Assembly: GCA_026398415.1 (NCBI GenBank)
Contig: JAPLSY010000088.1
Location: 13,633-77,632 of the forward strand
DNA length: 64,000 nt
Direction of reading: 5' to 3'
Origin: Kiritimatiellota bacterium
GTDB taxonomy: Bacteria > Verrucomicrobiota > Kiritimatiellia > JAAZAB01
The notes beneath the pieces are model-generated. The model had not been told where the DNA came from and ran no database searches. It worked only from the letters and a program-made list of their open reading frames with translations. The first letter of the stretch is position 1, and each line of letters starts with the position of its first letter. Shown piece after piece: positions 853 through 64,000 of the stretch. The translations under genes and the position numbers were made by a program.

Positions 853-2088
853 TCATGCTTCCATTTGCCAGAATTCATAAAGTCGCTTGGTAAACCGACC
901 AGACTTTATTGACTCTAGTTCCTGATTCAGCGTTTTCAGTTCTGCCTTGTCCTGTTTAGGTTGACGCTCGGCTATCCGGATAGCACGGTCGTAAACTTGT
1001 TCGGCTTTGGTGTTCTTGCCTGCGAGAGCCCAGAGCAGGCCAAGATTCTGCAGAAAGGAGATGAGAGCGCGACTATGAGCGCCGTTAGTGTCCTCCTCGA
1101 TTTGAACCGCCTGTTCAAGAGCATGTAAGCCTTCGTCCTTATCACCGGTTCTGGTCAATGTTAGGGCAAAATTATTCAAGACACTGGGGAGATTGCTGCT
1201 TCCCGTTCCATGCTCTTTTTCGAGGATGGACAGAGCCTGGCGGAATAACCGTTTTGCCTTTTGATACTGCTCTAATGTCACATAGACCAGAGCCAAATTG
1301 TTCATTGTATCTACAACCGACGGGTCTTGTGCGCCCGCTTTTACCCGGCGAATGGCCAGAGAGCGTTTATAGAGCGTCACCGCCTTTTTATTTTCCTTTA
1401 GACCGGTATTGACTTTGGCCAGAGAGTCAAGCATATCAGCAATCCGACTGTCCCGGCAACCGAAAGTCTTTTCACCTAAAGCCAGTGCCGATTGATAGGT
1501 TCTGCGGGCCTTCTTGAGGCTGGCCGCATCCTGATATTTGCCATGCTCCTCGTAGGCACAGCCGAGATGCAAGATGTGCATGACGCGGGTTTCCGCGTCG
1601 GATTGTTCGCAGACCGGCGCGGTAGTCGCGGTCTCCAGACAGCTTATGGCCTGACTGTATTCATCTTTGTCCAGGTGATTCATGCCGAGGTGGTCGAGCA
1701 CATCTGCCGTCGTCTCCAACTCATTGAAATGTTCTTCTTTCGACACTTCGCATGGTGAGTCATTCGCCGGTTCCATATCGGGGATCAGCATCTCATGTAA
1801 TTTGATCTGAATTAGTCCGTCGCCGAGATTTAGCGGTTCATATTCGGGAGTCACTTTCCAGCAGGCGCTCCGGCCATCCCGAACCACACCCAGGATGTTC
1901 AACTTCTTGAGCACCCATGGCGTTTGACATTCCGGGCATTGAGTGACTTTCCCGATCCGTTTTATCTGTTTGACAAGTTCTCGGCCGTCTTTAACCTCGT
2001 GTTCATAATTTTCCGGGCATTGCTTGCACCCGAGAGCCACAACGGCATAATTGCCCGGGAAAGTGAATTGTTTCATGATATTCCTCAT
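853..2088 (-). CDS. TPR-repeat protein (TPR_10/12-like) with N-terminal CxxC...CxxC zinc-ribbon-like segment
   Basis: Multiple TPR-like helical repeats (NLALVYVTLEQYQKAKRLFRQAL, LNNFALTL...). Cys pairs near the N-terminus (CKQCP...CPEC). Confidence 0.65.
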   Translation of the reverse strand: MRNIMKQFTFPGNYAVVALGCKQCPENYEHEVKDGRELVKQIKRIGKVTQCPECQTPWVLKKLNILGVVRDGRSACWKVTPEYEPLNLGDGLIQIKLHEMLIPDMEPANDSPCEVSKEEHFNELETTADVLDHLGMNHLDKDEYSQAISCLETATTAPVCEQSDAETRVMHILHLGCAYEEHGKYQDAASLKKARRTYQSALALGEKTFGCRDSRIADMLDSLAKVNTGLKENKKAVTLYKRSLAIRRVKAGAQDPSVVDTMNNLALVYVTLEQYQKAKRLFRQALSILEKEHGTGSSNLPSVLNNFALTLTRTGDKDEGLHALEQAVQIEEDTNGAHSRALISFLQNLGLLWALAGKNTKAEQVYDRAIRIAERQPKQDKAELKTLNQELESIKSGRFTKRLYEFWQMEA

Positions 2089-2109: not shown

Positions 2110-2850
2110 TCAGTCCCCCTCAGCATATTTCCACTGGTCGTCCTGCGGTTCGGCTTTCCCCTGAAACGCCAGAGTACCCAGATAATTGGCAGCCTTTTCG
2201 ACCCCATTTTTGGCCGCCTTTCGGAGCCATCTCAGCGCCATCTTGTGATTCCTTGCGCCACCAATCCCCTTCTCATAAAAACAGGCCAATGCATATTGGG
2301 CATACCCATGCCCTTTATCCGCAGCACGTGAGAGCAGCCGCCGCGCCTTCAGCTGATTCCTTTTTATTTTAGGTCTATTGGCATAGCCTAAGCCCAATTC
2401 GCATAGGGCCGCAGGATGTCCTTGTTTGGCTGCCAGTCCATACCACCGAATGGCCTGGGCACGATCTTTTTTGATGCCAAGTCCATCATTGTAAATAATC
2501 CCAACATTGTGCTGCGCCGTACTGAGCCCAAGATCCGCGGCCCTTCTGAAATATCCAAGTGCTTTCGTATAATCGCGTCGCACCCCGTGGCCGCGATAAT
2601 ACATACCGCCCACGTCATTTATGGCTATGACATGCCCTTGGGCGGATGCCTTTTTCAACCATGCTAATGCTTCCTTATTGTCGGGATGATCGTTTTGCTG
2701 ATCTAGCAGCATCACGCCCAGCCGCCACTGAGCTTCGGCGTTGCCTGTTTCAGCCAATTTGCGATAGACCGCCATAGCTGACTCCCAATCTCCCTGCTTT
2801 TCACTTGCGATGCCTTTCTTGAGCTTCTTGGCGTCCATTTTCGATGTCAT
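2110..2850 (-). CDS. Sel1-like repeat (SLR) protein
   Basis: Six or more Sel1 repeats with the canonical pattern AQxxLGxxYxxGxGVxxDxxKAxxWYxKAAxQG. Confidence 0.8.
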   Translation of the reverse strand: MTSKMDAKKLKKGIASEKQGDWESAMAVYRKLAETGNAEAQWRLGVMLLDQQNDHPDNKEALAWLKKASAQGHVIAINDVGGMYYRGHGVRRDYTKALGYFRRAADLGLSTAQHNVGIIYNDGLGIKKDRAQAIRWYGLAAKQGHPAALCELGLGYANRPKIKRNQLKARRLLSRAADKGHGYAQYALACFYEKGIGGARNHKMALRWLRKAAKNGVEKAANYLGTLAFQGKAEPQDDQWKYAEGD

Positions 2851-3033: not shown

Positions 3034-4065
3034 ATGAAACGTTTCGATGCCGAGCAAAAGGCTCCTATGGCCAAGGCAAAATTCAAGCCTCAATTTCAGC
3101 GCTTGGTGTTTATCGATCAGAAAATCCGGGCCGGCCGATACCCGAACTGCACCACGCTTTCGCGGGAATGGGAGGTCAGTTACAAGACCATTCAGCGGGA
3201 TATTGATTACCTGAAAGATGCGCACGATGCGCCCATAGAATACGATAAGGCTCATTGTGGCTTTTATTATAAGGCCCCGACATGGTTCCTTCCCGCCGTC
3301 ATGCTCAGCGAAGGGGACATCTTTGCCCTGCTGATCGGCTCGCAGGCGTTGCAGATGTATCAGGGAACCCCGATGGCCAGGGAATTAAAGGCGATTTACG
3401 CCAAGCTGGCGCAATTGTTGCCTGAACAAATCTCCGTTCCGCCCGAATTGATCTTCAACCGGCTGAGTTTTCTGGGCGCTCCTTGCCGTCCAATTAACGC
3501 GGACATCTGGAAGTCGCTGGTCCGCGGGATACTTCATCAGCGGGCAATGTGGATCGAGTACGCGTCTCCACGTTCCAATAAGCCAAAGGAGCACACGATT
3601 CATCCACTGCACATTGCGAACATCGAAGGCGATTGGTATGTCCTGGCACACGAAACGCGGTGGAAAGACATCGCGCAATATGCCGTATCGAGAATCAGGA
3701 AAGCCGAATTACAGGACACTACGTTTGTACCGCCGAGAGGTTTTGACGCCAAGCGGATTCTGAAAGACCGGTTTGGCAAGTTCATTCATGTGGATGGCGG
3801 CAAGAGAATCACGGTTCGCCTGCGATTCAGTCCTGAAACCGCCAACTACATCTCGGAACGATCCTGGCACCCCCAGCAGAAACTACGCATCCTGAGAACC
3901 GGGGAGGCCGAACTACAGTTTCCCGTGGCGGATTTAGCTGACGTTGTGCCGTGGGTGCTGAGTTTCGGCGCCGAGGTCAAGGTGCTTCAGCCGCGGACAC
4001 TACGCGCGGCGATCTTGGCAAGACTGCAGGAAACGCTTATGATGTATCGCGATGGGGGAAAATAA
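3034..4065 (+). CDS. WYL-domain transcriptional regulator (wHTH + WYL + C-terminal WCX; BrxR/CapW/PafBC-like)
   Basis: N-terminal DeoR-like HTH (TLSREWEVSYKTIQRDIDYLKDAHDAPIEYD). WYL core (HTIHPLHIANIEGDWYVLAHETRWKDIAQYAVSRIRKAELQ). Length about 340 aa is typical. Confidence 0.8.
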   Translation: MKRFDAEQKAPMAKAKFKPQFQRLVFIDQKIRAGRYPNCTTLSREWEVSYKTIQRDIDYLKDAHDAPIEYDKAHCGFYYKAPTWFLPAVMLSEGDIFALLIGSQALQMYQGTPMARELKAIYAKLAQLLPEQISVPPELIFNRLSFLGAPCRPINADIWKSLVRGILHQRAMWIEYASPRSNKPKEHTIHPLHIANIEGDWYVLAHETRWKDIAQYAVSRIRKAELQDTTFVPPRGFDAKRILKDRFGKFIHVDGGKRITVRLRFSPETANYISERSWHPQQKLRILRTGEAELQFPVADLADVVPWVLSFGAEVKVLQPRTLRAAILARLQETLMMYRDGGK

Positions 4066-5173
4066 CGCCATGATCATAACCAAAACGCTGATGAAACAGG
4101 GAAAGACGCCGCCGCCGACAGGCGGCACACTGCTGGCTGATGTGCGGACGATGATTCTCACCGCGCGGGAAGGCGTTGCTCGTGCGGTGGACGCCGGCCT
4201 GACGACGCTCTACTGGCATGTTGGCCGGCGCATACGACACGATATCCTGAAAGAACAGCGCGCCGGGTACGGGGAAGGGATTGTCTCCGCACTGGGGAGA
4301 CAATTGGCCGCGGAGTTTGGTCGAGGGTTCTCGGAGAAATCTCTGCGACACATGATACGGTTTGCGGAGGCGTTCTCAGATTTCAAGATTGTCTCATCAC
4401 TGCTGAGACAATTGTCTTGGAGCCATTTCCTTGCTCTGATCTACCTCGATGATCCGCTCAAGCGCGACTTTTACGCCGAGATGTGCCGGATCGAACGCTG
4501 GAACACGCGGACGTTGGCGAAAAAGATCCAGTCCATGCTTTTCGAGCGTACCGCGCTGTCCCGTAAGCCCGCCAAGCTGGCCGAGATGGAATTGAAGCAA
4601 CTGCGGGAAGAAGACAAGTTGACCCCTGACCTGGTCTTTCGTGACCCGTACCTCCTGGACTTCCTGGGGCTGAAGAATACTTACGCAGAGAAAGATGTCG
4701 AGGCCGCCATTCTCCGGGAAATGGAGTCGTTCATCCTTGAACTCGGCGTAGGCTTTGCCTTCATGGAGCGGCAGAAACGGATCACGGTGGACGGCGACGA
4801 TTACTACCTGGACTTGCTTTTCTTTCACCGGCGACTGAAACGGCTGGTGGCCATCGAACTGAAGCTGGGCGATTTCAAACCGGCCGACAAGGGCCAGATG
4901 GAACTTTATCTGCGTTGGCTCGACAAATATGAGCGCCGGGAAGGTGAAGACAGTCCGCTCGGGTTAATCCTGTGCGCCGGGAAGAAGGAAGAGACCGTGC
5001 GCCTGCTCGACATGGAGAAAAGCGGCATCCGGGTTGCTGCCTACTGGACCGAAATCCTGCCCAAGGCACAATTGGAACGGAAACTCCATGAAGCCGTGCT
5101 TCTCGCGCGCGAACGGTTGACGGCCAAAAAGACTGCGGTACGTAAGCGCAAGCGCCTGGACGGAGGAAAGTGA
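4052..5173 (+). CDS. DUF1016/YhcG-family PD-(D/E)xK nuclease (PDDEXK_1)
   Basis: N-terminal YhcG_N signature (LSWSHFLALIYLDDPLKRDFYAEMCRIERWNTRTL). C-terminal nuclease signature (VAIELKLGDFKPADKGQMELYLRWLD...PLGLILCAGKKEE). Start overlaps the WYL gene stop by 14 nt. Confidence 0.8.
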   Translation: MGENNAMIITKTLMKQGKTPPPTGGTLLADVRTMILTAREGVARAVDAGLTTLYWHVGRRIRHDILKEQRAGYGEGIVSALGRQLAAEFGRGFSEKSLRHMIRFAEAFSDFKIVSSLLRQLSWSHFLALIYLDDPLKRDFYAEMCRIERWNTRTLAKKIQSMLFERTALSRKPAKLAEMELKQLREEDKLTPDLVFRDPYLLDFLGLKNTYAEKDVEAAILREMESFILELGVGFAFMERQKRITVDGDDYYLDLLFFHRRLKRLVAIELKLGDFKPADKGQMELYLRWLDKYERREGEDSPLGLILCAGKKEETVRLLDMEKSGIRVAAYWTEILPKAQLERKLHEAVLLARERLTAKKTAVRKRKRLDGGK

Positions 5174-5210
5174 TTATATCCCAAACCGTCTTTACCCACA
5201 AAGGAGCAAC

Positions 5211-6230
5211 ATGAAAAAAAGAAGGCGTGAAGAAGACATGTATCCGGCAATAAAACGATACTTCATAAAGAAATTGGATTGCGAACATATTTCGGTGGAC
5301 TTGCCCGGTCAAAAGAAAGTACACCTGCCTAGAAATCTCAGCAAAAGAGACCCCGATGTCCTTGGTATCACTACTGATGGTGAGGTTGTCGCGGCAGAAG
5401 GCAAATTATTGTCCCAGAGCGGCCAGCCATTTGAGGTATGTATCGAGCAGTTACTCAGCCTCAAGTCTTTTGCTGATCATCTCTATGCCTTCTTCCCAAA
5501 AGAAGAATGGAATGAATTGTCCGCGGATGATGTGAAGACGAACAGGAAACGTCTAAAGAATAAAGGGATTGGGCTAATCTTGGTCGATCAGAAAAGCAGG
5601 TGTTTTGATATCTTGAATGTTCCGCCGAATCCTGATGTCGAGGAGTCGAAACGAGATGCTGTCAAAAAACAGCTTGGCCTTCAGGCTGATGATCGAATTC
5701 CGGATATCGGTTGCTTATCTACATCGGATGCAACAGTTGCCAATAAACTGCTGTGCTTGGTAGACGAAACTATTACCGAAGCCGTGAGAACTGCTTTACG
5801 AAAAGTATTCAAGCAAGCCAAGAAAAAAGGCAAGAACTGGGATGTCTATCCGATTGCAGGCAGCGAAGGATGTGATGCCCGTGTGTTCCGGGTTTACTTT
5901 GATCACGGGGCGGTTGACGTGGAGATAGACCCATTCGGTGCCTACTTGAGAGATGGCAGGCCATGCATTTGGGTTTCCAAAGCGGTAGAAGATGATTTCT
6001 TTGAGACAAAAGGTAGGCGGTGTGACTCGATTGGAACACATGCATACTTTTTAGATAAGGGCGATGTGGTCTCTCTCTATGATGCAACCACGGATAGGGC
6101 GCGGCGGTGTTCCGAAGCTGGGTTCTGGTCATTCCTGATGCACCAGATTCCGTTTCTTGGCCGTTCGCGATCCGGTCTTGAGGATGAACTTGAAGCGGTA
6201 ATTCGCGCGGCCAAACAATTGAAAGGCTAA
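5211..6230 (+). CDS. Hypothetical protein (339 aa) in a low-GC segment. Possible N-terminal PD-(D/E)xK-like motif (DPDVLGI...EVVAAEGK).
   Basis: Long ORF with Lys-rich N-terminus and strong AT bias relative to surroundings. The motif assignment is tentative. No recognisable family. Confidence 0.45.
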   Translation: MKKRRREEDMYPAIKRYFIKKLDCEHISVDLPGQKKVHLPRNLSKRDPDVLGITTDGEVVAAEGKLLSQSGQPFEVCIEQLLSLKSFADHLYAFFPKEEWNELSADDVKTNRKRLKNKGIGLILVDQKSRCFDILNVPPNPDVEESKRDAVKKQLGLQADDRIPDIGCLSTSDATVANKLLCLVDETITEAVRTALRKVFKQAKKKGKNWDVYPIAGSEGCDARVFRVYFDHGAVDVEIDPFGAYLRDGRPCIWVSKAVEDDFFETKGRRCDSIGTHAYFLDKGDVVSLYDATTDRARRCSEAGFWSFLMHQIPFLGRSRSGLEDELEAVIRAAKQLKG

Positions 6231-6293
6231 AAACTATACAGGGTGCCAATATCTGACCCGCACGGTGACCAATTGCTGGTGTGACGGTAACGC

Positions 6294-7370
6294 CTACTTC
6301 TTCTTCCTCAACGCACGCACTTTTCCCCGAAGCTTCCGCCAAGGAACGGTCTTTCTCGGTCCGGGATGGAGCATGGTGTGGCAGTTCGAACAGACTACGA
6401 GGAGATCGTTTCTCGGGTCTATCTGCCGGCGTCCACTGCGCGCCAACGGTCTAATGTGATGCACCTCCGCGAACTTCACGCCGTAGGTTTTTTCAAAGGT
6501 AAAATCACAGACTCGGCATACATATCCATCCTCCAACGCCGCCCGACGATTTCGAGCATCTCTCTCTACTACACGCTTTATGACCTCATGCCTACGTCCC
6601 TCGATAAACCCCTTTTGCTTTTCATCATCTTTTATTTCTATTGGTGTTTGAAAAGGCACCCGATCCTTTTTTCGGATGCACGCCCCTTGCCGAGTCATAC
6701 GATGAAAAAATGCATCGAACTCATCGAAACTCCGAAAACCATTATCTACGGCAATACTTCTGAGTCGAGGAACATGTCTATGAATGTATACGTCTACACG
6801 CTTGGTCTTGACGAATCCATAGATCACTGCCTCAAAACCGCGAATTGATCCGTCATTCACTATTGGATACCACATGGGCTGAAGAACCCAGACAAACGTG
6901 CTTATAACACCAATCCCCAGACCGCTGACTGGGTGCTTAGCGTAATTCTCCAACGCCCTATCGGCATAGTTTCGATCCTTTGCTTTTGCTACAGTCCGCA
7001 GCATCTGCCAAAGACGTTCCCTGTCCCCTTTTTTTCTCAAACAGTGCTCGATAGATCCAAGAGTGCCGCCCACTATGCCCGACCACTTCTTTCTTGCTCT
7101 GTCAATACTTCTCAAGATTTTCGGCGGAAAACCTCTTTCATACACGGCAAGCTTGGCTTCCGGGCCGCATTTACCTTCATAACGAAGAGCGCGATACAAG
7201 GCATCGAACTGTTGCGAAGTTGGCAGTCTCTTTCTACTGGTTAGATAGCTAAAAAATATGCAGAAGACACGTTGAGCACGGTGGTAGTTCCATTCATCAT
7301 TGTGTTTCCGTTTCCAGTCGCGGCGGAAACGACTAAGTTCAACATGTAAATTTCTCGCTCCCATATTCAT
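6294..7370 (-). CDS. HNH-endonuclease-domain protein (C-terminal HNH/ββα-Me; N-terminal about 250-aa domain of unknown function)
   Basis: C-terminal CRVCDFTFEKTYGVKFAEVHHIRPLARSG...NDLLVVCSNCHTMLH, with two Cys pairs flanking His-His as in HNH. Low-GC, convergent with the 5211..6230 gene. Confidence 0.7.
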   Translation of the reverse strand: MNMGARNLHVELSRFRRDWKRKHNDEWNYHRAQRVFCIFFSYLTSRKRLPTSQQFDALYRALRYEGKCGPEAKLAVYERGFPPKILRSIDRARKKWSGIVGGTLGSIEHCLRKKGDRERLWQMLRTVAKAKDRNYADRALENYAKHPVSGLGIGVISTFVWVLQPMWYPIVNDGSIRGFEAVIYGFVKTKRVDVYIHRHVPRLRSIAVDNGFRSFDEFDAFFHRMTRQGACIRKKDRVPFQTPIEIKDDEKQKGFIEGRRHEVIKRVVERDARNRRAALEDGYVCRVCDFTFEKTYGVKFAEVHHIRPLARSGRRQIDPRNDLLVVCSNCHTMLHPGPRKTVPWRKLRGKVRALRKKK

Positions 7371-7580
7371 CCTCCTGTCTTGGTTTAATGCTCCGGGATT
7401 TTTCCGATGGATCCAACCTTAGGCTGAACTCATCCCGTTTTCGGCCCGGTCGGAGCGAAAGAGTTTTATGCCGCGAGTTTGGCACATTTGGTCGCATAGT
7501 CAAGCGGCGACAGATTATAGAGCAGTGATTCTCTGTATTGCCACGTCCAACCACCAGCGGATGTCGTGGCCGACTGCATT

Positions 7581-9050
7581 TCAATGCTTAACGGTGCCTT
7601 GAAGATTGCGCAGAATTCCAATCATCCCGCCCGTATCCTGACCACAATATCGCAAGAGTTGATTCCGTATCTTGCGCCGCTCGGCTGTGCTGACATCGCC
7701 AAATGTAACCCGCAGGAATTCCTGGCTGGCTGTTGATCCGTCTGCAATGGGCAAGTTGTCATAACTCCGCTTTGTCAAGGCCGGCATCACCCGCTTCAAT
7801 GAATTGCTGCCATGCTGGCGAGGATGATAATAGGCGACCTTCCTGAACGGGATAATGAGGTCGTTGATTCGCTTCAGGACTTCACAAACCCACAGTCTGT
7901 GCGCCGGAAATGCTTGAGCCATCTGTTTGAGCATGTTTTTCTCAAAAGCCATGTAGAATACCAGGATCGTCCCGGAACGACCAATGGTATGCTTCAGACT
8001 TTGGAGAAGTTTCGGGCGAGGATCATTCCGGCCTTCGGCCAGAAATGAGTGATGAACTGGCTTCGCCCTTGGCGCATCGAGTACGTGCAGTGAATATTGA
8101 AAAGGTATCTGCTGGTAGGGCTTGGTTCCGTCAAAGATCGGAATGGGTGTGCTGAATGTCTCGAAATCAAGGAGCCTTACGGGATATTCGATCTCCGATA
8201 GGAAGCCTGCGATAGCGGGAGCATCGATATGAGGTCTGTGTGTCCTGAGACTTTTGACTTGGACAGCCTGGTACTTAGTGAATTTAAAGTCCTGCGGAAT
8301 GTCTTTGATTTTGATGATACCGTTCTCAAATAGGTCAAACTTCTTGTTCCCGATCTGGTATAATTCAAAAATATTGTCTTTGGGCAGAAAAGACCAACAG
8401 GCATCCATAAGAGGGCATCCAACCGGTGTGCTGCACTGCGGGCCAATAGGAATCTTTGGACACTTGGCCGCCGCAATTATTTTCCGGATGCGAACAACAT
8501 CTGTGGGAATCGTTCGGAGGTTCGCTTTAACCTCATTGCTGACATGGTGAATGCAGAACAGCTTCTTGATTCTGATCGGACCTCGTTTTACGTATTCCTG
8601 GTTAAGAGTCGCGATGTGGGTATGGTGTATCGGTAGTCCCGACTTATCGCAGACATACTTCTGGAAAGCCACATCCTGGATAAAGTGATCTTCGATATCC
8701 GTTGTGGATTTAACCTCGACAATATCCCATCCGCCTCTGACCGGAACAAGGATGTCAATCTGGGCGTAGAAGTCAGTAAAGGCAATGGCTGCTTCGTAGA
8801 TCGGCTTGCGGCTCAAGAGCGCCTTCCTGGTGGCTGTGATTCGGTCTGAAAGACGGAGAGCTGTATCTATGGCGATACCACCCGGAAAGAGGGACTGAGC
8901 CTGGATGCCAACCTCTTGCCCGCGTTCGATGGCGGATGGAACATCATCACCTTCTGTGACCAAGTCCTTAGGTCTGTGAACCCGAGTCCACAACAACTTT
9001 GAGCACTGGAGCCCCGCCATGTAGTTTGTCTTGGTAATCAGCATCCACAA
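7581..9050 (-). CDS. DUF2779-like predicted nuclease: N-terminal Cas4/RecB-like PD-(D/E)xK domain with 4-Cys cluster plus C-terminal DEDD (RNase H-like) exonuclease-like domain
   Basis: N-terminus MAGLQCSKLLW. Motif QIDILVP...WDIVEVKSTT (D...EVK). Cys cluster CPKIPIGPQCSTPVGCPLMDAC. The RLLDFETFSTPIP motif resembles exonuclease motif I. Confidence 0.55.
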   Translation of the reverse strand: MWMLITKTNYMAGLQCSKLLWTRVHRPKDLVTEGDDVPSAIERGQEVGIQAQSLFPGGIAIDTALRLSDRITATRKALLSRKPIYEAAIAFTDFYAQIDILVPVRGGWDIVEVKSTTDIEDHFIQDVAFQKYVCDKSGLPIHHTHIATLNQEYVKRGPIRIKKLFCIHHVSNEVKANLRTIPTDVVRIRKIIAAAKCPKIPIGPQCSTPVGCPLMDACWSFLPKDNIFELYQIGNKKFDLFENGIIKIKDIPQDFKFTKYQAVQVKSLRTHRPHIDAPAIAGFLSEIEYPVRLLDFETFSTPIPIFDGTKPYQQIPFQYSLHVLDAPRAKPVHHSFLAEGRNDPRPKLLQSLKHTIGRSGTILVFYMAFEKNMLKQMAQAFPAHRLWVCEVLKRINDLIIPFRKVAYYHPRQHGSNSLKRVMPALTKRSYDNLPIADGSTASQEFLRVTFGDVSTAERRKIRNQLLRYCGQDTGGMIGILRNLQGTVKH

Positions 9051-9136
9051 ACTCCAACGTCAGGCCAATGGCTAATGGCGCTTGGATATGGTTAAACCTT
9101 GTTCTCTCGTCGTTCTATCGCTTGTCAAACCAAAGG

Positions 9137-10174
9137 TTATGCTTTGTCGAGCGTATCTCCAGATAGGAATACAAGGTCATAGCCGCAATGGTCGACGATG
9201 AATTTGACGAGCGCATCGGATGGGCGCGATTGGATGGCCAACATGCCGTGAGCATTTTGGAGGCGCTGTCTGTAAAGGAACGCGTAGTAGTTGAGTTGGG
9301 CGGCGCCGAGGCGGACTTGACATTCGATGTTGTCGGGCCGGCAGGACTTCACCTCGACTATGATGCGCTTGCGTTTTTTTCGTGCGCTCAGATCCAGATG
9401 CTTGTCCCATTTTATGATATAACCCTGACCTTTCAGATATGCTGCGACCTTGCGCTTGAGAGCCTCGTGATCCCGATAGGACGTTTGAAGCTTCGCATTG
9501 TCCTTCGATAGCCTGATGGTAAACGGACCCGTGTATTCTGGTAACTCCTTGGCAACAAACCGTCGCAGAATCGAGCCGCTGACGGATGAGGGACTTTCCG
9601 TCCCTGTTGTGAGTCGGGAGGGGCGGATGCCTGGGAAGTAGGTATCTGCAATATGATAAAGCCTTGGCGTGGTGTCCCCCGTAAAGCTGCCTCCGCGCCG
9701 ACGAATGGCAAGCATATCAGAGAGGATGTTTCTGGCCTGGACATCCTTCAGATAGGCTATGTATCTGACGGTCTTTGTTCCTGGGGGGAGGTGACGGCTG
9801 GGAAGAAAGGGAAGATAGTTCGGAAGTTTTATGCAGTCTTTCCACCAAGCCTTCAGATTGGTCCAATGTCCGCTCCGCATCTGGGGCGTGAAAACTGTCG
9901 CTCTGGCATAGAAGCCGGTGATGTATCGCATGCCGTCGGCATGATTCTTGGATACGAAGAAGACGATTCCACCGTCCGCGAAGAAGCGCACATCGTTGCC
10001 CCGGTTCTCGAAGAATCCGTACTTCCATTTGTCGCGCGGCGGCCTGAAGTTCCATGATTCGCCGCCGTGGTGTTTACTCGGGTCGGTCGCGACCCACTTG
10101 AACCCTGAGCGGTCTGGGCTCACATCAGTCCATCCTTTGCTGTTCCAAGTCGTGTTGGCCAAGATGAATCGCAT
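9137..10174 (-). CDS. Putative modification-dependent (type IV-like) restriction endonuclease: N-terminal domain of unknown function (possible PUA/EVE-like reader) plus C-terminal PD-(D/E)xK (IIVEVKSC)
   Basis: C-terminal DKHLDL...RIIVEVKSCRPDNIEC...QLNYYAFL fits Mrr-like catalytic core. Only 8 bp downstream of the type IIG gene, so likely co-transcribed. The N-terminal assignment is an inference. Confidence 0.4.
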   Translation of the reverse strand: MRFILANTTWNSKGWTDVSPDRSGFKWVATDPSKHHGGESWNFRPPRDKWKYGFFENRGNDVRFFADGGIVFFVSKNHADGMRYITGFYARATVFTPQMRSGHWTNLKAWWKDCIKLPNYLPFLPSRHLPPGTKTVRYIAYLKDVQARNILSDMLAIRRRGGSFTGDTTPRLYHIADTYFPGIRPSRLTTGTESPSSVSGSILRRFVAKELPEYTGPFTIRLSKDNAKLQTSYRDHEALKRKVAAYLKGQGYIIKWDKHLDLSARKKRKRIIVEVKSCRPDNIECQVRLGAAQLNYYAFLYRQRLQNAHGMLAIQSRPSDALVKFIVDHCGYDLVFLSGDTLDKA

Positions 10175-10182
10175 ATATTCTC

Positions 10183-13083
10183 CTAACCTTCCACGATTTT
10201 GATTTCCTCTTCCGTCAGGCCGTACAGTTCGTACACCAGACGGTCAATCTGCTGGTCGGTCGCCTGCACGGCGTTCTGCAACGTCTCGCGCTCCCGCTCA
10301 CCCTTCGCCGCCCGCAACTTCGGCACCAGCGTCAGCATTTTGTCCACAAGCTCAACAAGCCGGTCGTGGCGGGCACGGTCTGCGGGGTTCTTGAAATCTA
10401 GTCTTGGGAGAGGGATCTGGCGGAAATCCGACGGATTGATGTTTACATTTGGGAAGTGCGCGCGATACCAGTAGTTGATGAGTTTTGAATTGAACACGCC
10501 TAAAACAAATCTGAGTGAATAGTCGCTACCTGCTTTATGAATGATGTTTGCCAAGTTATGCGCGTTGTAATGCAATTCCGTATCTAAAGTCGCGACCAAC
10601 CTGCGAGACAACGATTTATTCCGCATCGCGTGTAAAAGAATCTTTTCTCCGTTGAAGTATCGCTCATCGCGCGGGCACCAGAGCCACTCGCCATATGACA
10701 CAAACTCGCCGCCCCAAAGCACTTCGTAGCGTGCGATATTCTTTCCGCGCAGAAGCCTCTTCCAGCTTTTCCGGGGTTGAAATCCCGTATATTTGGCCTT
10801 CTCTGCATCGGATCCTGTCTTGTAAAGAATAATTCCTTGAGATGAGTCCGTAACGTCGCCAAGCCGAATTTCCCCGGATTCCACTGTCTTAAACAACTTG
10901 GCCTGTCTTGGGTTCGTGTGGACGTTGATCCTGCACGATTCATCTTGCTGAACTACGCTTTGTGCAATCTGGAAAGACTCGTCCCAATCCATCCTCGCCA
11001 CGCGCGTCTTGTCACTCTTGGGATCCAGCTTGTGAATTAAAAGCTTGTGAGTTGCAGTGCCATTGGTGTCCCGAATGTAAAAGAGCAGAACATTGTCAAC
11101 AACCACCCCGGCGAAAACGCCTTGCGGGAGGTCAACCAACTCTGTGATCTTCCCTTGGGTGACGAGGCGCCGGCGCAAAAGCTCATATGAATGTCCCATG
11201 AGAAAGGTGTTGGGCAGAATGTTGCCAAACCGCCCGCTGGTTCTAAGCAGCGAGGTGCCGCGCAGAACGAAAATCTGGTACAGGTCGTATCGTTTCCCAA
11301 GCCTGCCAGCTTCCCCATATGCGGAGGTGTAATAATCGCGATGCTCGGCGGGAATATTCTCGATTTGAACGTATGGCGGATTCCCGATCACGATATCGAA
11401 TCCCCCAACTTTCATGGCGTCGGGGAACTGCACGGGCCAGTCGAAGGCGTGGACACGCTCAAGGTCTGCGGAAACCTTTGAGAAGTCGGAGGCGATAAGT
11501 GAGTTTCCGCATTTGATGTTGTGGTATAGATTTGGCAATGCGCGTTCGTGTTCGTGGAAGAGGGTCATCTGCTGGGAAAGGGTGGTGTCATTTTCGCCTT
11601 CGAGGGCTTTCAGTAGCAACGAGAGCTTGGTGGTTTCGACGGCCTGCGGGTCGATGTCGACGCCGTAGATGTGGGTGGTGAGGATGCGTTTGCGTTCGCC
11701 GATGGAGAGACATGTTTCCCCTTTGGCGTTCTGATAGACGGCTTTGGCGTGTTTTTTAGAGAGGTTTGCCTGATGCCATTTCAGGCAATGGTCCAGCAGA
11801 AACTGATAGGCGCTGAGGAGGAAGGATCCGCTGCCGCAGGCCGGGTCGAGGATGCGAAAGGGGGGCGTGGTTTTGCCGCCAGCGAGATCGGCAGGGCTTT
11901 TGCCTTCAATCTGTTTGCCGATGGTGCTGTGGACGATGTAGTTCACGATATAGGCGGGGGTGTAGTATACGCCGCCGGCCTTGCGCACTTCGGGCTTTTC
12001 CTCGACTTTGGCCTGGTGTCCGGCGGTCAGGCGAATGACTTTGCCGAGGAAGCGTTCGTACACCGTACCGAGGATTTCCACGGGCATGACGCCGAAGTGG
12101 TATGGGCAACCGTGTTCGAAGTAGAGGCTTTGGAGAATGGGCTTGAGGGCATTGTCGTCCACGGCCAGACTCGGCGTGAGGGTGTCCGGCGCATCGGAGA
12201 CGCCGATTTCTTTCTGGAAGTGGAACAGGCCGGAGTTGTATTTCTGATCGGCCTTGCGGCACACGCCGCTCATAAAACGGTTGTAGATGTCCGGCTGTTC
12301 ACAGAGCTTGAGCAGTTGCCCGTAAGATTCCAGTCCGCGATCCTCGGCCATGCGCAGGAAAATGAGCCGGTCAATGATCCGTTGAACGGCGGCTGTGAGG
12401 TCTTCTTCCGACGACAAATCGCTGTTTCGCAGGGCGAGGTTTCGTGCCAGCACATCGCGCCAGCCTTCAATATCCTTCAAAAACTCGCTATCAACCTCGG
12501 AGGTGCCTCGCTTACGCTTGGAGGCAGCATACTTGTCGAACGTCCCAGACCAGATGGCCTCGCGCGAGAAAACGTCCCAAATCTCCCGCCAACGGTCAGG
12601 ATACTCGGTGAACCCGAAATACTGGATACGGGCATGGCTGGCCTTATCGCCGGGTCGCGGGCGAGCGGCGCAATCGTAAACGCCCAGTTCATCGAAGTCG
12701 GTCAGGATGGACAGAGCTAACTTGGCGCTGAAACCGTAGCGGCGAAGTTGAAAGGCTGGCGCGGGATCGGCGCTGATATTGACGCCGCACTTTTTGGCTT
12801 CGACGTAGAACTTCGGCAATGTGCCGATGCGGAAGGTGTAGTCGGGTGCCTTCAGTTGGCCTTCCACATCCAAACTGTCTTCGGTAATGACTTCGCGATA
12901 TTGGGGTGCGGTCATGGAGTGGTTGCGCACGTCCCAACCAAGGGCCTCGAAAAAAGGGTCTATGAGCGATTGGCGGACGTGAGCTTCCTTGACTCCAGGG
13001 GCGAGGAAGGACTGCCGGTTAGAGGTGAAGTACTGACATAGCTTTGCAACTTCATCTTTGCCTTGGTCGAATGTTTTACTCAT
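10183..13083 (-). CDS. Type IIG/IIL restriction-modification enzyme (MmeI/Eco57I-like): N-terminal PD-(D/E)xK endonuclease, central N6-adenine methyltransferase, C-terminal target-recognition domain
   Basis: N-terminal DYTFRIGTLPKFYVEAKK (D...EAK). SAM motif I ILDPACGSGSFLL. Motif IV IGNPPYVQ. 966 aa in a single polypeptide. Confidence 0.85.
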   Translation of the reverse strand: MSKTFDQGKDEVAKLCQYFTSNRQSFLAPGVKEAHVRQSLIDPFFEALGWDVRNHSMTAPQYREVITEDSLDVEGQLKAPDYTFRIGTLPKFYVEAKKCGVNISADPAPAFQLRRYGFSAKLALSILTDFDELGVYDCAARPRPGDKASHARIQYFGFTEYPDRWREIWDVFSREAIWSGTFDKYAASKRKRGTSEVDSEFLKDIEGWRDVLARNLALRNSDLSSEEDLTAAVQRIIDRLIFLRMAEDRGLESYGQLLKLCEQPDIYNRFMSGVCRKADQKYNSGLFHFQKEIGVSDAPDTLTPSLAVDDNALKPILQSLYFEHGCPYHFGVMPVEILGTVYERFLGKVIRLTAGHQAKVEEKPEVRKAGGVYYTPAYIVNYIVHSTIGKQIEGKSPADLAGGKTTPPFRILDPACGSGSFLLSAYQFLLDHCLKWHQANLSKKHAKAVYQNAKGETCLSIGERKRILTTHIYGVDIDPQAVETTKLSLLLKALEGENDTTLSQQMTLFHEHERALPNLYHNIKCGNSLIASDFSKVSADLERVHAFDWPVQFPDAMKVGGFDIVIGNPPYVQIENIPAEHRDYYTSAYGEAGRLGKRYDLYQIFVLRGTSLLRTSGRFGNILPNTFLMGHSYELLRRRLVTQGKITELVDLPQGVFAGVVVDNVLLFYIRDTNGTATHKLLIHKLDPKSDKTRVARMDWDESFQIAQSVVQQDESCRINVHTNPRQAKLFKTVESGEIRLGDVTDSSQGIILYKTGSDAEKAKYTGFQPRKSWKRLLRGKNIARYEVLWGGEFVSYGEWLWCPRDERYFNGEKILLHAMRNKSLSRRLVATLDTELHYNAHNLANIIHKAGSDYSLRFVLGVFNSKLINYWYRAHFPNVNINPSDFRQIPLPRLDFKNPADRARHDRLVELVDKMLTLVPKLRAAKGERERETLQNAVQATDQQIDRLVYELYGLTEEEIKIVEG

Positions 13084-13325: not shown

Positions 13326-13865
13326 TCAATCCGCCTTAAAACCAATCCGTTTTCTTGTCGGTTCCGGCGGGCGCATGAGTTCTCTGATTGCGTCGAAAAC
13401 GGCTTTGAATTGCACGTCGTATTTCTTCTCAAGTTCGGCCAGCTTGTGCGCCAGTTCGACGTTTGAGGTCAACCATTGGCGGATACGAACAAAGGCGCGC
13501 ATGATTTCAATGTTCACACTTACCGCGCGCGGGCTGTGCAACACGCTTGACAGCATGGCAACGCCCTGCTCGGTGAAGGCATAGGCCGGTTTCCGTCTGC
13601 CGCCGTGTCCATAACTTGAAGTGCCAAATTGGAACATCAAGTTTGTAAGTTCCTGCGGTTCAAGTTGAAGCATGAAGTCATCAGGGAAGCGTTCGCGGTT
13701 GCGTTTCACGGCCCGATTGAGTGCCTTGGTTTCCACGCCATACAGCGCGGCCAGGTCGCTATCCAACATAATCTTCTGGCCGCGGAGAAGCATGATTTTC
13801 TTTTCAATACTTGCCGCAGGTATCAGGTCGGTCTTGTTAGGCTTAGGCATGGGCAGGGACTTCAA
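13326..13865 (-). CDS. ORF6N-domain (KilA-N-like) DNA-binding protein
   Basis: [45 protein letters not shown] matches the ORF6N N-terminal signature. Confidence 0.7.
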
Positions 13866-14070: not shown

Positions 14071-15375
14071 CTATATCATGTCATGAAGTAATGAAGCAAG
14101 CAGTTTGTCACGCTGGGCACGCCAATTTTTGGCGGTCATGGATTTCAGGATGGCACAAATTGCAGCCTTGTCGATCTTGCCGGGATTGTCGGTGAGTGGA
14201 GGTAGCGCCGGTGCATTGCCGATTAAGACGGGCATGGAGCCTACGGCTTCCTTCATTGCCTTTTCCCCGACATGCGTATAAGTGTCGTGCATGGCCAGCG
14301 TTGAATGGCCCACAATCGCCATTGTCACCGAAAGCGGTGCGCCTGCTTCCCGGAGCAGGGAAACGGCGGAATGTCGTAATGAATGAAATCCGGCGGAGAT
14401 AACCTTGCGAACACCGTGGCCGTCTCGTTTTGTCACAATCCCATTTTTCTCGAAATGCTGTTGAACAATCTTGGATACCGCATACGGCCCTGTTTCCGTA
14501 TAAAGTTTTGCCATTTTCGGGAGAATATAGCCTTGCCGATTTTCCGGCGGTATTTCAGCAAGGATATTCGCAAGGGTAGGGTGCAAAGGAACAGTCAATT
14601 CCTTGCCGTTTCTCCTGGCCGTTTTGCGCGGCATATACCGGATCAAGCCCCGCTTCAGGTCTATGTTGCCCCATTCCATTGTCGCGGCGTCCGCCAGGCG
14701 TGCCCCCAGGTAGAGCCCCAGGGCCAGCATGAGGCGGAGTTCACCTTCCGCGCTTTGACATATTCGCTTTAATTCCTCGACGGTTAATTCCCGGCGGCTT
14801 TGCGGCGCCAGTCCTTTTTTCCGTTGGATCTCCTCCCACGGATTATTCTCTATTCTGGCTTTATCCTTCAGGACACGGAAAACCAGTTCACAGACGCGGA
14901 CATGCTTATTGAACGTGTTGGCCGTGACGCCCCGGCCCGCCAGGTGTGCGGCATATTCCCCGGCAATTTCCATATTCACACCCCGCAGGCTTTTAATGTC
15001 AGGATGTTTTTCAACAAGCCAGCGTTCAAAACAGCCCCATTGCAGGGCGTAGGTTGCCAGCGTAGCCTTGCCGCTGTCAGGCCGGTTAGAAGCCTTTTCG
15101 TAATTATCCCAGGTGGCAACGATGCTTAATGGCGGGTTTCTCTTTCCATTAAGGATGGCCAATTCATCTTTTGCCCCTTCAATCCGGGCTTTCACGTTCT
15201 GAAGGGTTTTGATTTCATCTTCGACCAGAAACGGCTCCATGATTTCAGCCAAGCGTTTTTCCGCTTCCCGGCGGACGGTCCGGCTGGTAGTCTTCATAAA
15301 TTTCTTGCCTGCCACCGTCCAACAGGCATAATAGGTTTTGTTTCGGAGAATGAGGTAGCCTTTACGTGTTTTCAT
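14071..15375 (-). CDS. Tyrosine site-specific integrase/recombinase
   Basis: C-terminal catalytic region HSLRHSAVSLLREAGAPLSVTMAIVGHSTLAMHDTYTHV (R...HxxR...Y). N-terminal SAM-like arm-binding region. Confidence 0.9.
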   Translation of the reverse strand: MKTRKGYLILRNKTYYACWTVAGKKFMKTTSRTVRREAEKRLAEIMEPFLVEDEIKTLQNVKARIEGAKDELAILNGKRNPPLSIVATWDNYEKASNRPDSGKATLATYALQWGCFERWLVEKHPDIKSLRGVNMEIAGEYAAHLAGRGVTANTFNKHVRVCELVFRVLKDKARIENNPWEEIQRKKGLAPQSRRELTVEELKRICQSAEGELRLMLALGLYLGARLADAATMEWGNIDLKRGLIRYMPRKTARRNGKELTVPLHPTLANILAEIPPENRQGYILPKMAKLYTETGPYAVSKIVQQHFEKNGIVTKRDGHGVRKVISAGFHSLRHSAVSLLREAGAPLSVTMAIVGHSTLAMHDTYTHVGEKAMKEAVGSMPVLIGNAPALPPLTDNPGKIDKAAICAILKSMTAKNWRAQRDKLLASLLHDMI

Positions 15376-63277: not shown

Positions 63278-64000
63278 TTAGTCAAGATGCCACGAGGCAT
63301 TCAGCCCGTAGAGCTTTTCGTGATTATGGCCCTTGCCGCCTTTGCGGGCCAGGAGGCGGGCCATGTCGTGTTGTCCATAGGCCTCGGCCCAAGTCAAGGG
63401 TGTATTGCCGATATTGTCACGAGCGTTAATGTCGGCGCCGAAACTCAACATGCATTTAACACCTTCGACATGGCCCCAGAAGGCCGCCCAATGCAAGGGG
63501 GTCAATCCCTGGGTAAAGGTTTTGGATTCGATCTCGGCGCCGTTCTTGAGCAACAACTTGATGGTTTCCACGTGCCCATATTGCGCGGCACAGTGCAGGG
63601 GCGTCAGACCGAAGATATCCTTGGCGTTGATATCGGCATAGTAGGTCAGGAGCAAATAGACCATATCGGTGTGCCCGGCCAGCGCGGCCAGATGCAAGGG
63701 TGTAATGCCGACGCTGTTGACGGCGTTGATGTCGGCGCCTTTTTCAAACAGGAGCTTGACTTTGTCCAGCCGGTTGAACTGGGCGGCCTCGTGCATCGCG
63801 GTGGAGCCATCATCGGCGATGGGTGCGTTGACGTCGGGCGGCGCAGACGCCGCAACTTCCGCGTTGGTCATAGCCGTAGTTACCGGTTCAGGTTTGGCTG
63901 TCGGTACAGCCGTAGCTACCGGTTCAAGCGCGGTAATATTGGTGACACCCGTTACGTTGGTGACCCCCGCCTCCCGACTCGCCGCGAGGTCGGGATCGCC
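63278..64000 (-). CDS. Ankyrin-repeat protein, 5'-truncated by window edge (reading frame stays open upstream of the listed Met through a Pro/Thr/Ala-rich segment)
   Basis: Five or more ANK repeats (GxTPLHxAAxxGHxxxVxxLLxxGADxNA). Own translation of 63872-64000 in frame shows no stop (…LEPVATAVPTAKPEPVTTAM). Confidence 0.7.
   Translation of the reverse strand, partial: GDPDLAASREAGVTNVTGVTNITALEPVATAVPTAKPEPVTTAMTNAEVAASAPPDVNAPIADDGSTAMHEAAQFNRLDKVKLLFEKGADINAVNSVGITPLHLAALAGHTDMVYLLLTYYADINAKDIFGLTPLHCAAQYGHVETIKLLLKNGAEIESKTFTQGLTPLHWAAFWGHVEGVKCMLSFGADINARDNIGNTPLTWAEAYGQHDMARLLARKGGKGHNHEKLYGLNASWHLD

Follow-up and report, generated by a model that had tools for sequence, protein, structure and literature searches.

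This report concerns three adjacent genes on the minus strand of a 64,000-nucleotide stretch of DNA (hereafter, the window; positions 13,633 to 77,632 of contig JAPLSY010000088.1, assembly GCA_026398415.1) from a Kiritimatiellota bacterium, and in particular the middle gene, which encodes a protein of 345 amino acids (aa). In the direction of transcription, the gene of a type IIG restriction-modification (R-M) enzyme (10183-13083, 966 aa) is followed after 8 bp by the 345-aa gene (9137-10174) and then by a gene of the DUF2779 family, which occupies 7581-9044 when read from an ATG (487 aa) or 7581-9050 when read from a TTG (489 aa). The three open reading frames (ORFs) at 7581-13083, together with all the motifs quoted for them in a first-pass annotation of the same DNA, were confirmed. 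The spacing of 8 bp given there also holds, as does that of 86 bp to the TTG; the ATG at 9044, which gives a gap of 92 bp, is the more likely start of the DUF2779 gene, since it agrees with the NCBI model P0009 (487 aa), with the N-termini of homologues (MLITK) and with a GGAG located 7 nucleotides upstream. All three ORFs are real genes, each having homologues with conserved catalytic residues, and the catalytic motifs of the two accessory ORFs are intact, so that a pseudogene status is not borne out.

The first gene is, from its predicted domains, a self-sufficient single-chain type IIG R-M enzyme of the Eco57I kind with a TaqI-type target-recognition domain (TRD). Its product matches the PADLOC profile REase_MTase_IIG with E = 7.5e-173 and the Pfam families Eco57I (3.6e-36), N6_Mtase (2.5e-20), TaqI_C (8.3e-14) and HSDR_N (4.5e-08). 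The N-terminal PD-(D/E)xK nuclease carries the motifs APDY (residues 79-82) and VEAKK (94-98), that is, D81...E95-x-K97 (window 12790-12849); the gamma-class N6-adenine methyltransferase carries motif I, DPACGSGSFL (residues 413-422, window 11818-11847), and motif IV, NPPY (residues 568-571, window 11371-11382), followed by a TaqI_C-type TRD at residues 776-890. In this combination of a fused PD-(D/E)xK nuclease, a gamma-class N6-adenine methyltransferase and a TaqI_C domain the protein resembles the Eco57I-group type IIG enzymes with TaqI-like TRDs, and its nearest solved relatives by sequence are CamA, BseCI, PglX/BrxX and M.TaqI. The first-pass annotation had called the enzyme MmeI-like; the type IIG assignment stands, and the MmeI family (type IIL) is rejected, because only the MmeI_Mtase core matches (3.6e-13), more weakly than Eco57I, with no Pfam match to MmeI_N, MmeI_hel, MmeI_TRD or MmeI_C, the N-terminus being HSDR_N and the recognition domain TaqI_C. 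Such an enzyme would methylate adenine at its own sites to N6-methyladenine (m6A) and cut unmethylated invading DNA.

The second gene encodes a protein that is most likely a putative type IV modification-dependent restriction endonuclease, belonging to a rare and uncatalogued family of its own. It has a 100% identical counterpart, annotated as a hypothetical protein, in a Kiritimatiellaeota metagenome-assembled genome, and it has no match in Pfam, NCBIfam, PADLOC or a PDB sequence search; among these, the profile checks for EVE/PUA, SRA and Mrr_cat that the first-pass annotation had proposed for it found nothing. Only eight relatives occur among 5.8 billion protein clusters, and a profile search with the family over 1.84 billion representatives returned 554 matches, of which only 11 have E < 1e-30. 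A third homology search with the family profile added one further eligible protein, a tblastn search against plasmids and phages found nothing, and a metagenome scan with the 8-sequence alignment of the family yielded only 10 loci and almost no added context. The protein is modular: an N-terminal domain (about residues 1-165) recurs alone and within proteins of 600-1100 aa, being present on approximately 64 of the top 150 representative clusters, and a C-terminal domain (about residues 215-345) forms the C-terminal end of other proteins as well.

The N-terminal domain is assigned as a putative modified-base reader of the PUA-like (EVE/YTH) type (about residues 1-160; minus strand, 9695-10174). 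Among 46 multidomain holders of this domain, 19 carry a McrB-type AAA_5 GTPase, 12 an HNH (PF01844), eight an HNH_2 and three an HNH_5 domain (the HNH counts may overlap), three have an EVE domain alongside, and a PLD nuclease and a NOV_C PD-(D/E)xK domain are found in one each. These partners make up the effector repertoire of type IV modification-dependent restriction, and in the McrB homologues the domain holds the variable slot of the modified-DNA reader, which points to a reader role. An AlphaFold2 (AF2) model of the domain, built from a 46-sequence multiple sequence alignment (MSA), reaches a predicted local distance difference test score (pLDDT) of 93.5 and a predicted template modeling score (pTM) of 0.91. 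Its structural neighbors are EVE domains (PH1033, and THYN1 bound to 5-methylcytosine DNA), YTH domains (YTHDC1/2, YTHDF1 and Mmi1) and ASCH domains, as well as the EVE-HNH enzyme VcaM4I and the reader domains of the McrB proteins of T. gammatolerans (bound to 5-methylcytosine DNA) and S. marinus; the two best Foldseek matches are to the T. gammatolerans McrB N-domain (TgMcrB-N) and are marginal (E 0.027, TM-score about 0.4). The modelled domain thereby has the PUA-like fold (EVE/YTH/ASCH/SRA) of the sensor domain in modification-dependent enzymes of the PUA superfamily. Moreover, its conserved residues are W10, W15, E39, N42, F43, G53, F73 and G87, and the aromatic and polar character of the invariant or near-invariant ones among them (W10, W15, E39, N42, F43 and F73) would fit a base-binding pocket at the level of sequence.

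The C-terminal domain (about residues 225-345; minus strand, 9140-9502) is a PD-(D/E)xK nuclease domain that contains the motif VEVKSC (residues 273-278). D261, E274-x-K276, H236, Q286, Q293 and Y297 are invariant in an alignment of 12 relatives reaching down to 25% identity, and the invariance of D261, E274 and K276 argues for a fused nuclease domain with intact catalytic residues. Foldseek matches of this domain include McrC, RPA0323, Hjc, PaqCI and NucS, with probabilities of up to 0.99 and weak E-values. The first-pass annotation had described the core as an Mrr-like PD-(D/E)xK fold, of which the PD-(D/E)xK part is upheld by the invariant triad and the fold, and the Mrr part is withdrawn: Mrr_cat (PF04471) has no Pfam match in the domain at E <= 0.01, none of the 64 holders of the domain matches Mrr_cat (weak matches to PDDEXK_9 and Hjc are found instead), and BLASTP of the 345-aa protein against an Mrr_cat protein that adjoins one of its relatives gives E = 0.39. 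Elsewhere, the domain is fused to other putative DNA-binding heads, namely DUF7226 (15/64), AAA_assoc_C (11/64) and one EVE domain, and DUF7226 may be another DNA-sensing head. This C-terminal module is also found in P0141 (320 aa), joined to an AID/APOBEC-like deaminase domain (Inv-AAD 4.9e-12).

The genomic contexts of the family point in the same direction. Five relatives of decreasing identity were placed in independent contexts: P0006 (59%) lies among small ORFs and a PIN/FitA toxin-antitoxin pair, P0008 (52%) adjoins an Mrr_cat gene, P0130 (38%) stands alone among housekeeping genes with an ORF6N fragment, P0134 (33%) is found with small unknown ORFs and a split SNF2 gene, and P0147 (25%) directly follows a type II CBASS operon. 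A type IIG enzyme, any DNA methyltransferase and DUF2779 are absent from all five, the only members that abut a methyltransferase-nuclease of type IIG being those of the window and of a sister island (loci L003-L006). A nuclease whose relatives can do without a methyltransferase is classically taken to be modification-dependent, an argument from orphan status that has been used before (Lutz 2019, PMC6765204).

Several considerations nevertheless weigh against this assignment. None of the 46 members of the N-terminal domain matches the Pfam families EVE (PF01878), YTH, ASCH or SRA at E <= 1, and hhalign of the domain profile against a bona fide EVE domain gives a probability of 0.6%; with a PUA-like fold and no sequence link, the domain is a divergent, uncurated branch of that fold. 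PUA-like domains also bind RNA or mononucleotides, so that a DNA modification is here a presumed ligand. The PD-(D/E)xK fold matches come from a lower-quality model of the full-length protein (AF2 with an 8-sequence MSA, pLDDT 60.7, the N-terminus below 40), which was used for the C-terminal domain only, and their E-values are weak. Furthermore, only a handful of contexts is available for so rare a family, and PUA-type modification-dependent enzymes are not usually coupled so tightly to an enzyme with a methyltransferase, so that the coupling of the 345-aa gene could reflect a real functional interplay instead of mere juxtaposition.

If the 345-aa protein is a modification-dependent enzyme, its N-terminal domain would bind a modified base after base flipping, in the manner of EVE, YTH and SRA readers, and its PD-(D/E)xK domain would then cut the DNA. 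Produced from one mRNA, the type IIG enzyme and the reader-nuclease would give complementary cover, in which unmodified DNA is cut by the former and hypermodified DNA that escapes it is cut by the latter. Because the host DNA would carry the m6A of the type IIG enzyme, the reader would have to ignore this mark, and a cytosine-type or bulky modification would be the likeliest target. A modification-dependent enzyme that backs up the type IIG enzyme, one of the possibilities raised in the first-pass annotation, is accordingly retained as the best functional reading of the first two genes.

The junction of these two genes (10175-10190, minus strand) is unusually tight. The stop codon of the type IIG gene, TAG, falls within the AGGAG Shine-Dalgarno sequence of the 345-aa gene (GGTTAGGAGAATATATG, as read from the DNA), an overlap that indicates co-transcription and probably translational coupling, and both the overlap and the 8-bp spacing are kept in L003-L006. 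In the survey of Lutz et al. (PMC6765204), fewer than 6% of the ORFs of PUA-nucleases are within 3 kb of a DNA methyltransferase; such genes being rarely near a methyltransferase, the coupled arrangement of the window is unusual. At the same time, the two genes have not diverged equally. Between the window and the sister island L003, identity at third codon positions is 92.5% for the type IIG gene, 78.4% for the 345-aa gene and 83.2% for the DUF2779 gene; the region of the type IIG gene (window 10075-13074 against L003 1-3000) has 96.3% nucleotide identity, and the divergence changes in a step near 10075, inside the 5' end of the 345-aa gene. Because the type IIG gene is far less diverged than the adjacent genes, with the step inside the next gene, a recent recombinational exchange of the type IIG gene between related islands is suggested, and by this comparison its predicted history is different from, and more recent than, that of the 345-aa gene.

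These observations bear on an alternative in which the type IIG enzyme and the reader-nuclease form a unit that has co-evolved, is co-regulated and possibly interacts physically, with the nuclease acting on substrates made or left by the type IIG enzyme, such as hemimethylated or partly modified DNA of escapers. The conserved overlap at the junction speaks for such a unit, as does the rarity with which modification-dependent enzymes of the PUA type are found so near a DNA methyltransferase. However, the pairing exists in one lineage only (the window and the relative at 85% identity), none of the five more distant family members has a type IIG or methyltransferase neighbor, the third-codon divergence gives the type IIG gene a different and more recent history, and the reading of m6A made by the type IIG enzyme would be self-toxic. 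This alternative is therefore considered unlikely.

The third gene encodes a DUF2779 protein, as the first-pass annotation had proposed together with its Cas4-like four-cysteine and DEDD motifs: the match to PF11074 has E = 1e-39 (136.1 bits against a cut-off of 23.3), and all these residues are intact. A Cas4-like PD-(D/E)xK domain covers about residues 5-225, with C16, C206-x5-C212-x5-C218, IDIL (D99) and EVK (E112-x-K114), and a DEDDy 3'-5' exonuclease-like domain covers about residues 290-480, with LDFET (294-298; D295-x-E297), E370 and Y468-x3-D472; the Cas4-like and DEDDy residues are invariant in 16 sequences. Pfam Cas4 (PF01930) is recorded on some homologues, the PADLOC Cas4 match is weak (0.0078), and a PDB sequence search with the protein found nothing meaningful. 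The family is large, with more than 2300 matches. Its dual-nuclease architecture, put forward earlier as a new observation, is not new: it was published as family F.17, a predicted 3'-5' exonuclease with a DUF83 domain (Majorek et al. 2014, PMC3985635), and the DUF2779 gene of JCVI-syn3.0 was classed as quasi-essential in a 2026 analysis (PMC13621843). The window protein shares with the latter, MMSYN1_0389, the Cas4-like PD-(D/E)xK plus DEDD(y) architecture and has the catalytic residues, and differs from it in keeping four Fe-S cysteines instead of two and in lying on a mobile island with a WYL regulator, whereas MMSYN1_0389 belongs to a minimal core genome. The protein would be a DNA-end-processing nuclease that combines a Cas4-like (Fe-S, 5'-end) with a DEDDy (3'-5') activity, and it might serve in repair, element maintenance or the clearance of fragments. 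A Cas4 of a CRISPR adaptation module was also considered and rejected for it, because cas1 and cas2 show no association with it among the scanned genes of the island: Pfam and PADLOC scans of the island ORFs show no cas genes, nor do the called neighbors of L003, L087, L088, L090 and L111 include any, the whole 64-kb window not having been screened for CRISPR arrays.

In none of 80 diverse genomic loci of DUF2779 is a homologue of the type IIG enzyme or of the 345-aa protein found within 10 kb. The genes directly next to DUF2779 in these loci, 135 in all, fall into 170 Pfam families without a dominant partner, D12 methyltransferases and Mrr_cat proteins being represented by only two each; as the immediate neighbors in the 80 genomes are mostly non-defence genes and very heterogeneous, the notion of DUF2779 as a generally defence-associated family is rejected. 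The picture differs in the close clade, whose members are 59-89% identical to the window protein and were studied in six contexts (the window, L003, L087, L088, L090 and L111). In all six, an orthologue of a WYL-WCX regulator lies within 7 kb, the WYL proteins being 49-80% identical to one another, compared with a WYL gene within about 2 kb in 4/80 loci of the broad family. In L088, L090 and L111, a tight operon divergent from the WYL gene ends with DUF2779, whose partners in the operon, homologous between the loci, are DUF1281_C, Zn-ribbon, Sel1/TPR and 129-132-aa proteins. Some of these operon genes are homologous (tblastn, BLASTP) to two genes of the window, one for a Sel1-repeat protein (2110-2850, minus strand) and one for a Zn-ribbon-TPR protein (853-2088, minus strand; homologous over its N-terminus), and both of these are divergent from the WYL gene of the window and part of the island backbone. 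Given this recurrent company of WYL, Sel1, TPR and Zn-ribbon genes, DUF2779 is best regarded as part of the backbone shared by a family of mobile islands and not as a partner of the type IIG enzyme.

The divergent unit of WYL-WCX and DUF2779 extends over 6011-10482 in L111, 5830-9464 in L088 and 2793-7641 in L090, with gaps of 14-25 bp in L111, and L090 and L111 share 91% identity in their 129- and 132-aa proteins. Consisting of WYL-WCX, DUF1281_C/Zn-ribbon, Sel1/TPR, 129-132-aa and DUF2779 genes, this unit may in itself constitute a nuclease module under WYL regulation. Far from the island, a repetitive coding region of the window (63314-63913, minus strand) is matched several times in tblastn, at 33-43% identity, by the 129-132-aa proteins of L090 and L111.

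The first-pass annotation had also raised the possibility of a composite of all three genes. In such a system, DUF2779 would process or degrade the fragments made by the other two enzymes, much as RecBCD or Cas4 do. The three genes do lie on one strand, with no terminator predicted between them (the counts of the promoter and terminator scan being at or below the shuffled expectation, so that the scan is uninformative on operon structure), and the trio is kept in the sister island. Moreover, DUF2779 of the close clade borders DNA-targeting cargo in 5/6 contexts, one of which (L088) has a second, unrelated type IIG enzyme. However, the three families do not co-occur elsewhere: 0/80 DUF2779 loci, with their heterogeneous neighbors, have a type IIG or 345-aa homologue, the five contexts of the 345-aa family contain neither of the other two, and the trio, as IIG-344-DUF2779, recurs only in the close relative of the same island, where the middle protein is 85% identical. 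L111 contains a WYL-DUF2779 operon without any R-M genes, DUF2779 has a ribosome-binding site of its own after the 92-bp gap, its quasi-essentiality in a minimal Mycoplasma implies a general role in DNA metabolism (PMC13621843), and cas1, cas2 and CRISPR genes are missing among the island genes scanned. Since a lack of co-occurrence elsewhere is what the first-pass annotation itself had named as speaking against the composite, the composite is refuted as a general system, and for the window it is regarded as improbable. A comparably small chance is given to some link of DUF2779 to DNA-targeting cargo, which would count against fully separable modules and which is raised by L088, where DUF2779 of the close clade lies within 2 kb of a type IIG enzyme of a different family.

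A further alternative concerns the ligand of the 345-aa protein: its PUA-like domain would respond to an RNA or small-nucleotide signal, for example a methylated mononucleotide from degraded DNA, and would activate the nuclease as an effector of abortive infection. Domains of the PUA superfamily do bind RNA (YTH) and, in the PUA-Cal-HAD system, m6-dAMP (bioRxiv 10.64898/2026.01.15.699771), and adjacency to an enzyme that writes m6A would make sense. Yet the domain sits in the DNA-binding N-terminal slot of McrB-type GTPases (19/46) and is fused to HNH nucleases, a pattern of readers of DNA modification, its nearest structures include DNA-bound THYN1, VcaM4I and TgMcrB-N, and the other members of the family have no adjacent methyltransferase, all of which makes signal sensing very improbable. 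Equally slight is the chance of a two-component alarm, in which the type IIG enzyme writes m6A on the host DNA and the PUA-like domain would sense a derivative of it (methylated nucleotides or fragments from a chromosome degraded by a phage, or aberrant methylation on escaper DNA) and trigger the PD-(D/E)xK nuclease; if true, the R-M system would contain a second defence line of its own, alerted by the epigenetic mark that the system itself writes. The idea of a conventional methylation-sensitive type II endonuclease or accessory subunit, with the host protected by the methyltransferase domain of the type IIG enzyme, is scarcely tenable. The position of the 345-aa gene directly downstream of, and co-translated with, a methyltransferase-bearing enzyme speaks for it, but the homologues are orphans without a nearby DNA methyltransferase in 5/5 contexts, which would be lethal for a methylation-sensitive enzyme, and the reader domain is common to McrB-type and HNH-type enzymes.

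The putative modification-dependent nuclease and its two neighbors are carried on an island, which is apparent from base composition and from the genes at its edge. The guanine-plus-cytosine (GC) content is 0.49-0.55 over the first 16 kb of the window and approximately 0.60 over the rest, and the low-GC stretch ends at a tyrosine integrase gene (14071-15375, minus strand; Pfam Phage_integrase 4.6e-17), which forms the right edge of the island and has beside it an ORF6N-domain gene (13326-13865, minus strand; Pfam ORF6N 5.4e-33, PADLOC candidate PDC-S05). The low GC and the integrase/ORF6N edge place the three nuclease genes on an integrase-associated island, whose left boundary lies beyond the left end of the window; there are no tRNA genes in the 64-kb window. 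An ORF6N fragment (L106 9490-9777) also adjoins a solitary gene of the 345-aa family, which hints at ORF6N as a marker of the insertion or mobility module of these small islands.

To the left of DUF2779 lies a variable cargo cassette (3969-7453, both strands), composed of a YhcG/DUF1016 PD-(D/E)xK nuclease gene (4052-5173, plus strand; PADLOC candidate defence PDC-S02, E = 5.7e-124), a 339-aa ORF (5211-6230, plus strand) without a match in any library and a gene for a 358-aa HNH protein (6294-7370, minus strand; C-terminal HNH 6.3e-08). The N-terminal 280 aa of the HNH protein are mostly helical and uncharacterised, and the protein may add a further stand-alone nuclease of restriction type to the cassette; by inspection only, its HNH segment resembles that of P0142, a holder of the PUA-like N-domain. 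Beyond the cassette are the WYL-WCX regulator gene of BrxR/CapW type (3034-4065, plus strand; Pfam WCX 1.6e-18, WYL 1.3e-13, PADLOC WYL 3.2e-32) and the Sel1 and Zn-ribbon-TPR genes. The product of the WYL gene is a predicted regulator that shows the helix-turn-helix (HTH)-WYL-WCX architecture in a defence island, its HTH_11 match being weak. At the far left, a 66-nucleotide tandem repeat (28-643, 9.3 copies, 71% matches) lies inside a minus-strand gene that extends from about 755 to the left window end and runs off it, and the repeat encodes a protein of 22-aa repeats (...DENGKPRAxMxVxxDGPxLxM...). This protein is 73% identical to a 216-aa ORF after the TPR gene in L003, which makes it a member of the island backbone.

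Cargo exchange on this backbone can be read from synteny. By blastn, the homology between the window and L003 breaks exactly between the 3' ends of DUF2779 and WYL, and window 7453-3969 is replaced by unrelated genes; in L003, a 333-aa gene (weak PDC-S26 match) and a 429-aa gene take the place of the 3.5-kb cassette. Similarly, the cargo of L088 is a different type IIG family and a PLD-SNF2 protein, and that of L087 and L090 is an SNF2 and a ZacB-like PLD protein. In L087, DUF2779 lies between an SspABCD-like phosphorothioation cluster (Aminotran_5, PAPS_reduct, a 1127-aa protein and DUF4007) and an operon of SNF2, ZacB-like PLD, a 465-aa protein and WYL (L087 1-5560, 9463-15901), and the trio of SNF2, ZacB-like PLD and a protein of unknown function in L087 and L090 may be an undescribed defence cassette. 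Taken as a whole, the region is probably part of an integrase-associated mobile defence island of a Kiritimatiellaeota genome with a conserved backbone and swappable cargo, and the type IIG enzyme, the 345-aa protein and DUF2779 are, with the same reasonable but incomplete confidence, three separable modules and not one dedicated machine. DUF2779 is probably expressed under WYL control.

Comparison with known systems places these modules within well-studied kinds of defence. Enzymes of the PUA superfamily include VcaM4I and TspA15I (EVE-HNH) and YenY4I (PUA-DUF3427-PD-(D/E)xK) (PMC6765204, PMC7897488), and only one PUA-PD-(D/E)xK type was found by Lutz et al. (PMC6765204). Unlike these enzymes, the 345-aa protein has a reader without an EVE, YTH, ASCH or SRA sequence match, its PD-(D/E)xK domain is joined directly to the reader without the DUF3427 of YenY4I, it is coupled to an R-M gene, and it is known from sequence and a model. 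With McrBC the likeness lies in the variable N-terminal reader domains (T. gammatolerans McrB, 6P0G; S. marinus McrB, 6N0S), but the 345-aa protein has no GTPase motor; with reader and nuclease fused in a single chain of this size, it should cut without translocation.

The closest precedent for the logic of the island is pEFER, on which BREX (with the PglX m6A methyltransferase), the type IV enzyme BrxU and the WYL repressor BrxR occur together (PMC8565348, PMC9122601). The likeness is that one mobile island combines a WYL-WCX regulator with a type IV enzyme and an adenine-methyltransferase system related to PglX, which would give complementary cover against unmodified and modified phage DNA. 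The window differs in having a one-protein type IIG enzyme instead of a six-gene BREX and a PUA-like/PD-(D/E)xK protein instead of GmrSD. Its WYL gene is also, unlike that of pEFER, 5 kb away beyond another cargo cassette, and its regulation of the window genes is presumed.

Within these well-known kinds of systems, what is new is a previously uncurated family of PUA-like readers and its unusual coupling to an R-M enzyme. The family is shuffled among McrB GTPases and HNH, PLD and PD-(D/E)xK nucleases, and none of the sequence searches that were run (Pfam, NCBIfam, PADLOC and PDB) detects it. Readers of this sort can supply epigenomics with new modification-specific restriction enzymes as tools, and they flag type IV systems overlooked by current defence finders; the rare coupling of a PUA-type nuclease to an R-M enzyme offers a natural system in which to study the combined defence against unmodified and modified phage DNA. 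For DUF2779, the question is redirected, because in the close clade it is reproducibly accompanied by a BrxR-like WYL regulator together with Sel1, TPR and Zn-ribbon genes, and not by an R-M enzyme; this partnership provides a concrete lead for a widespread nuclease family.

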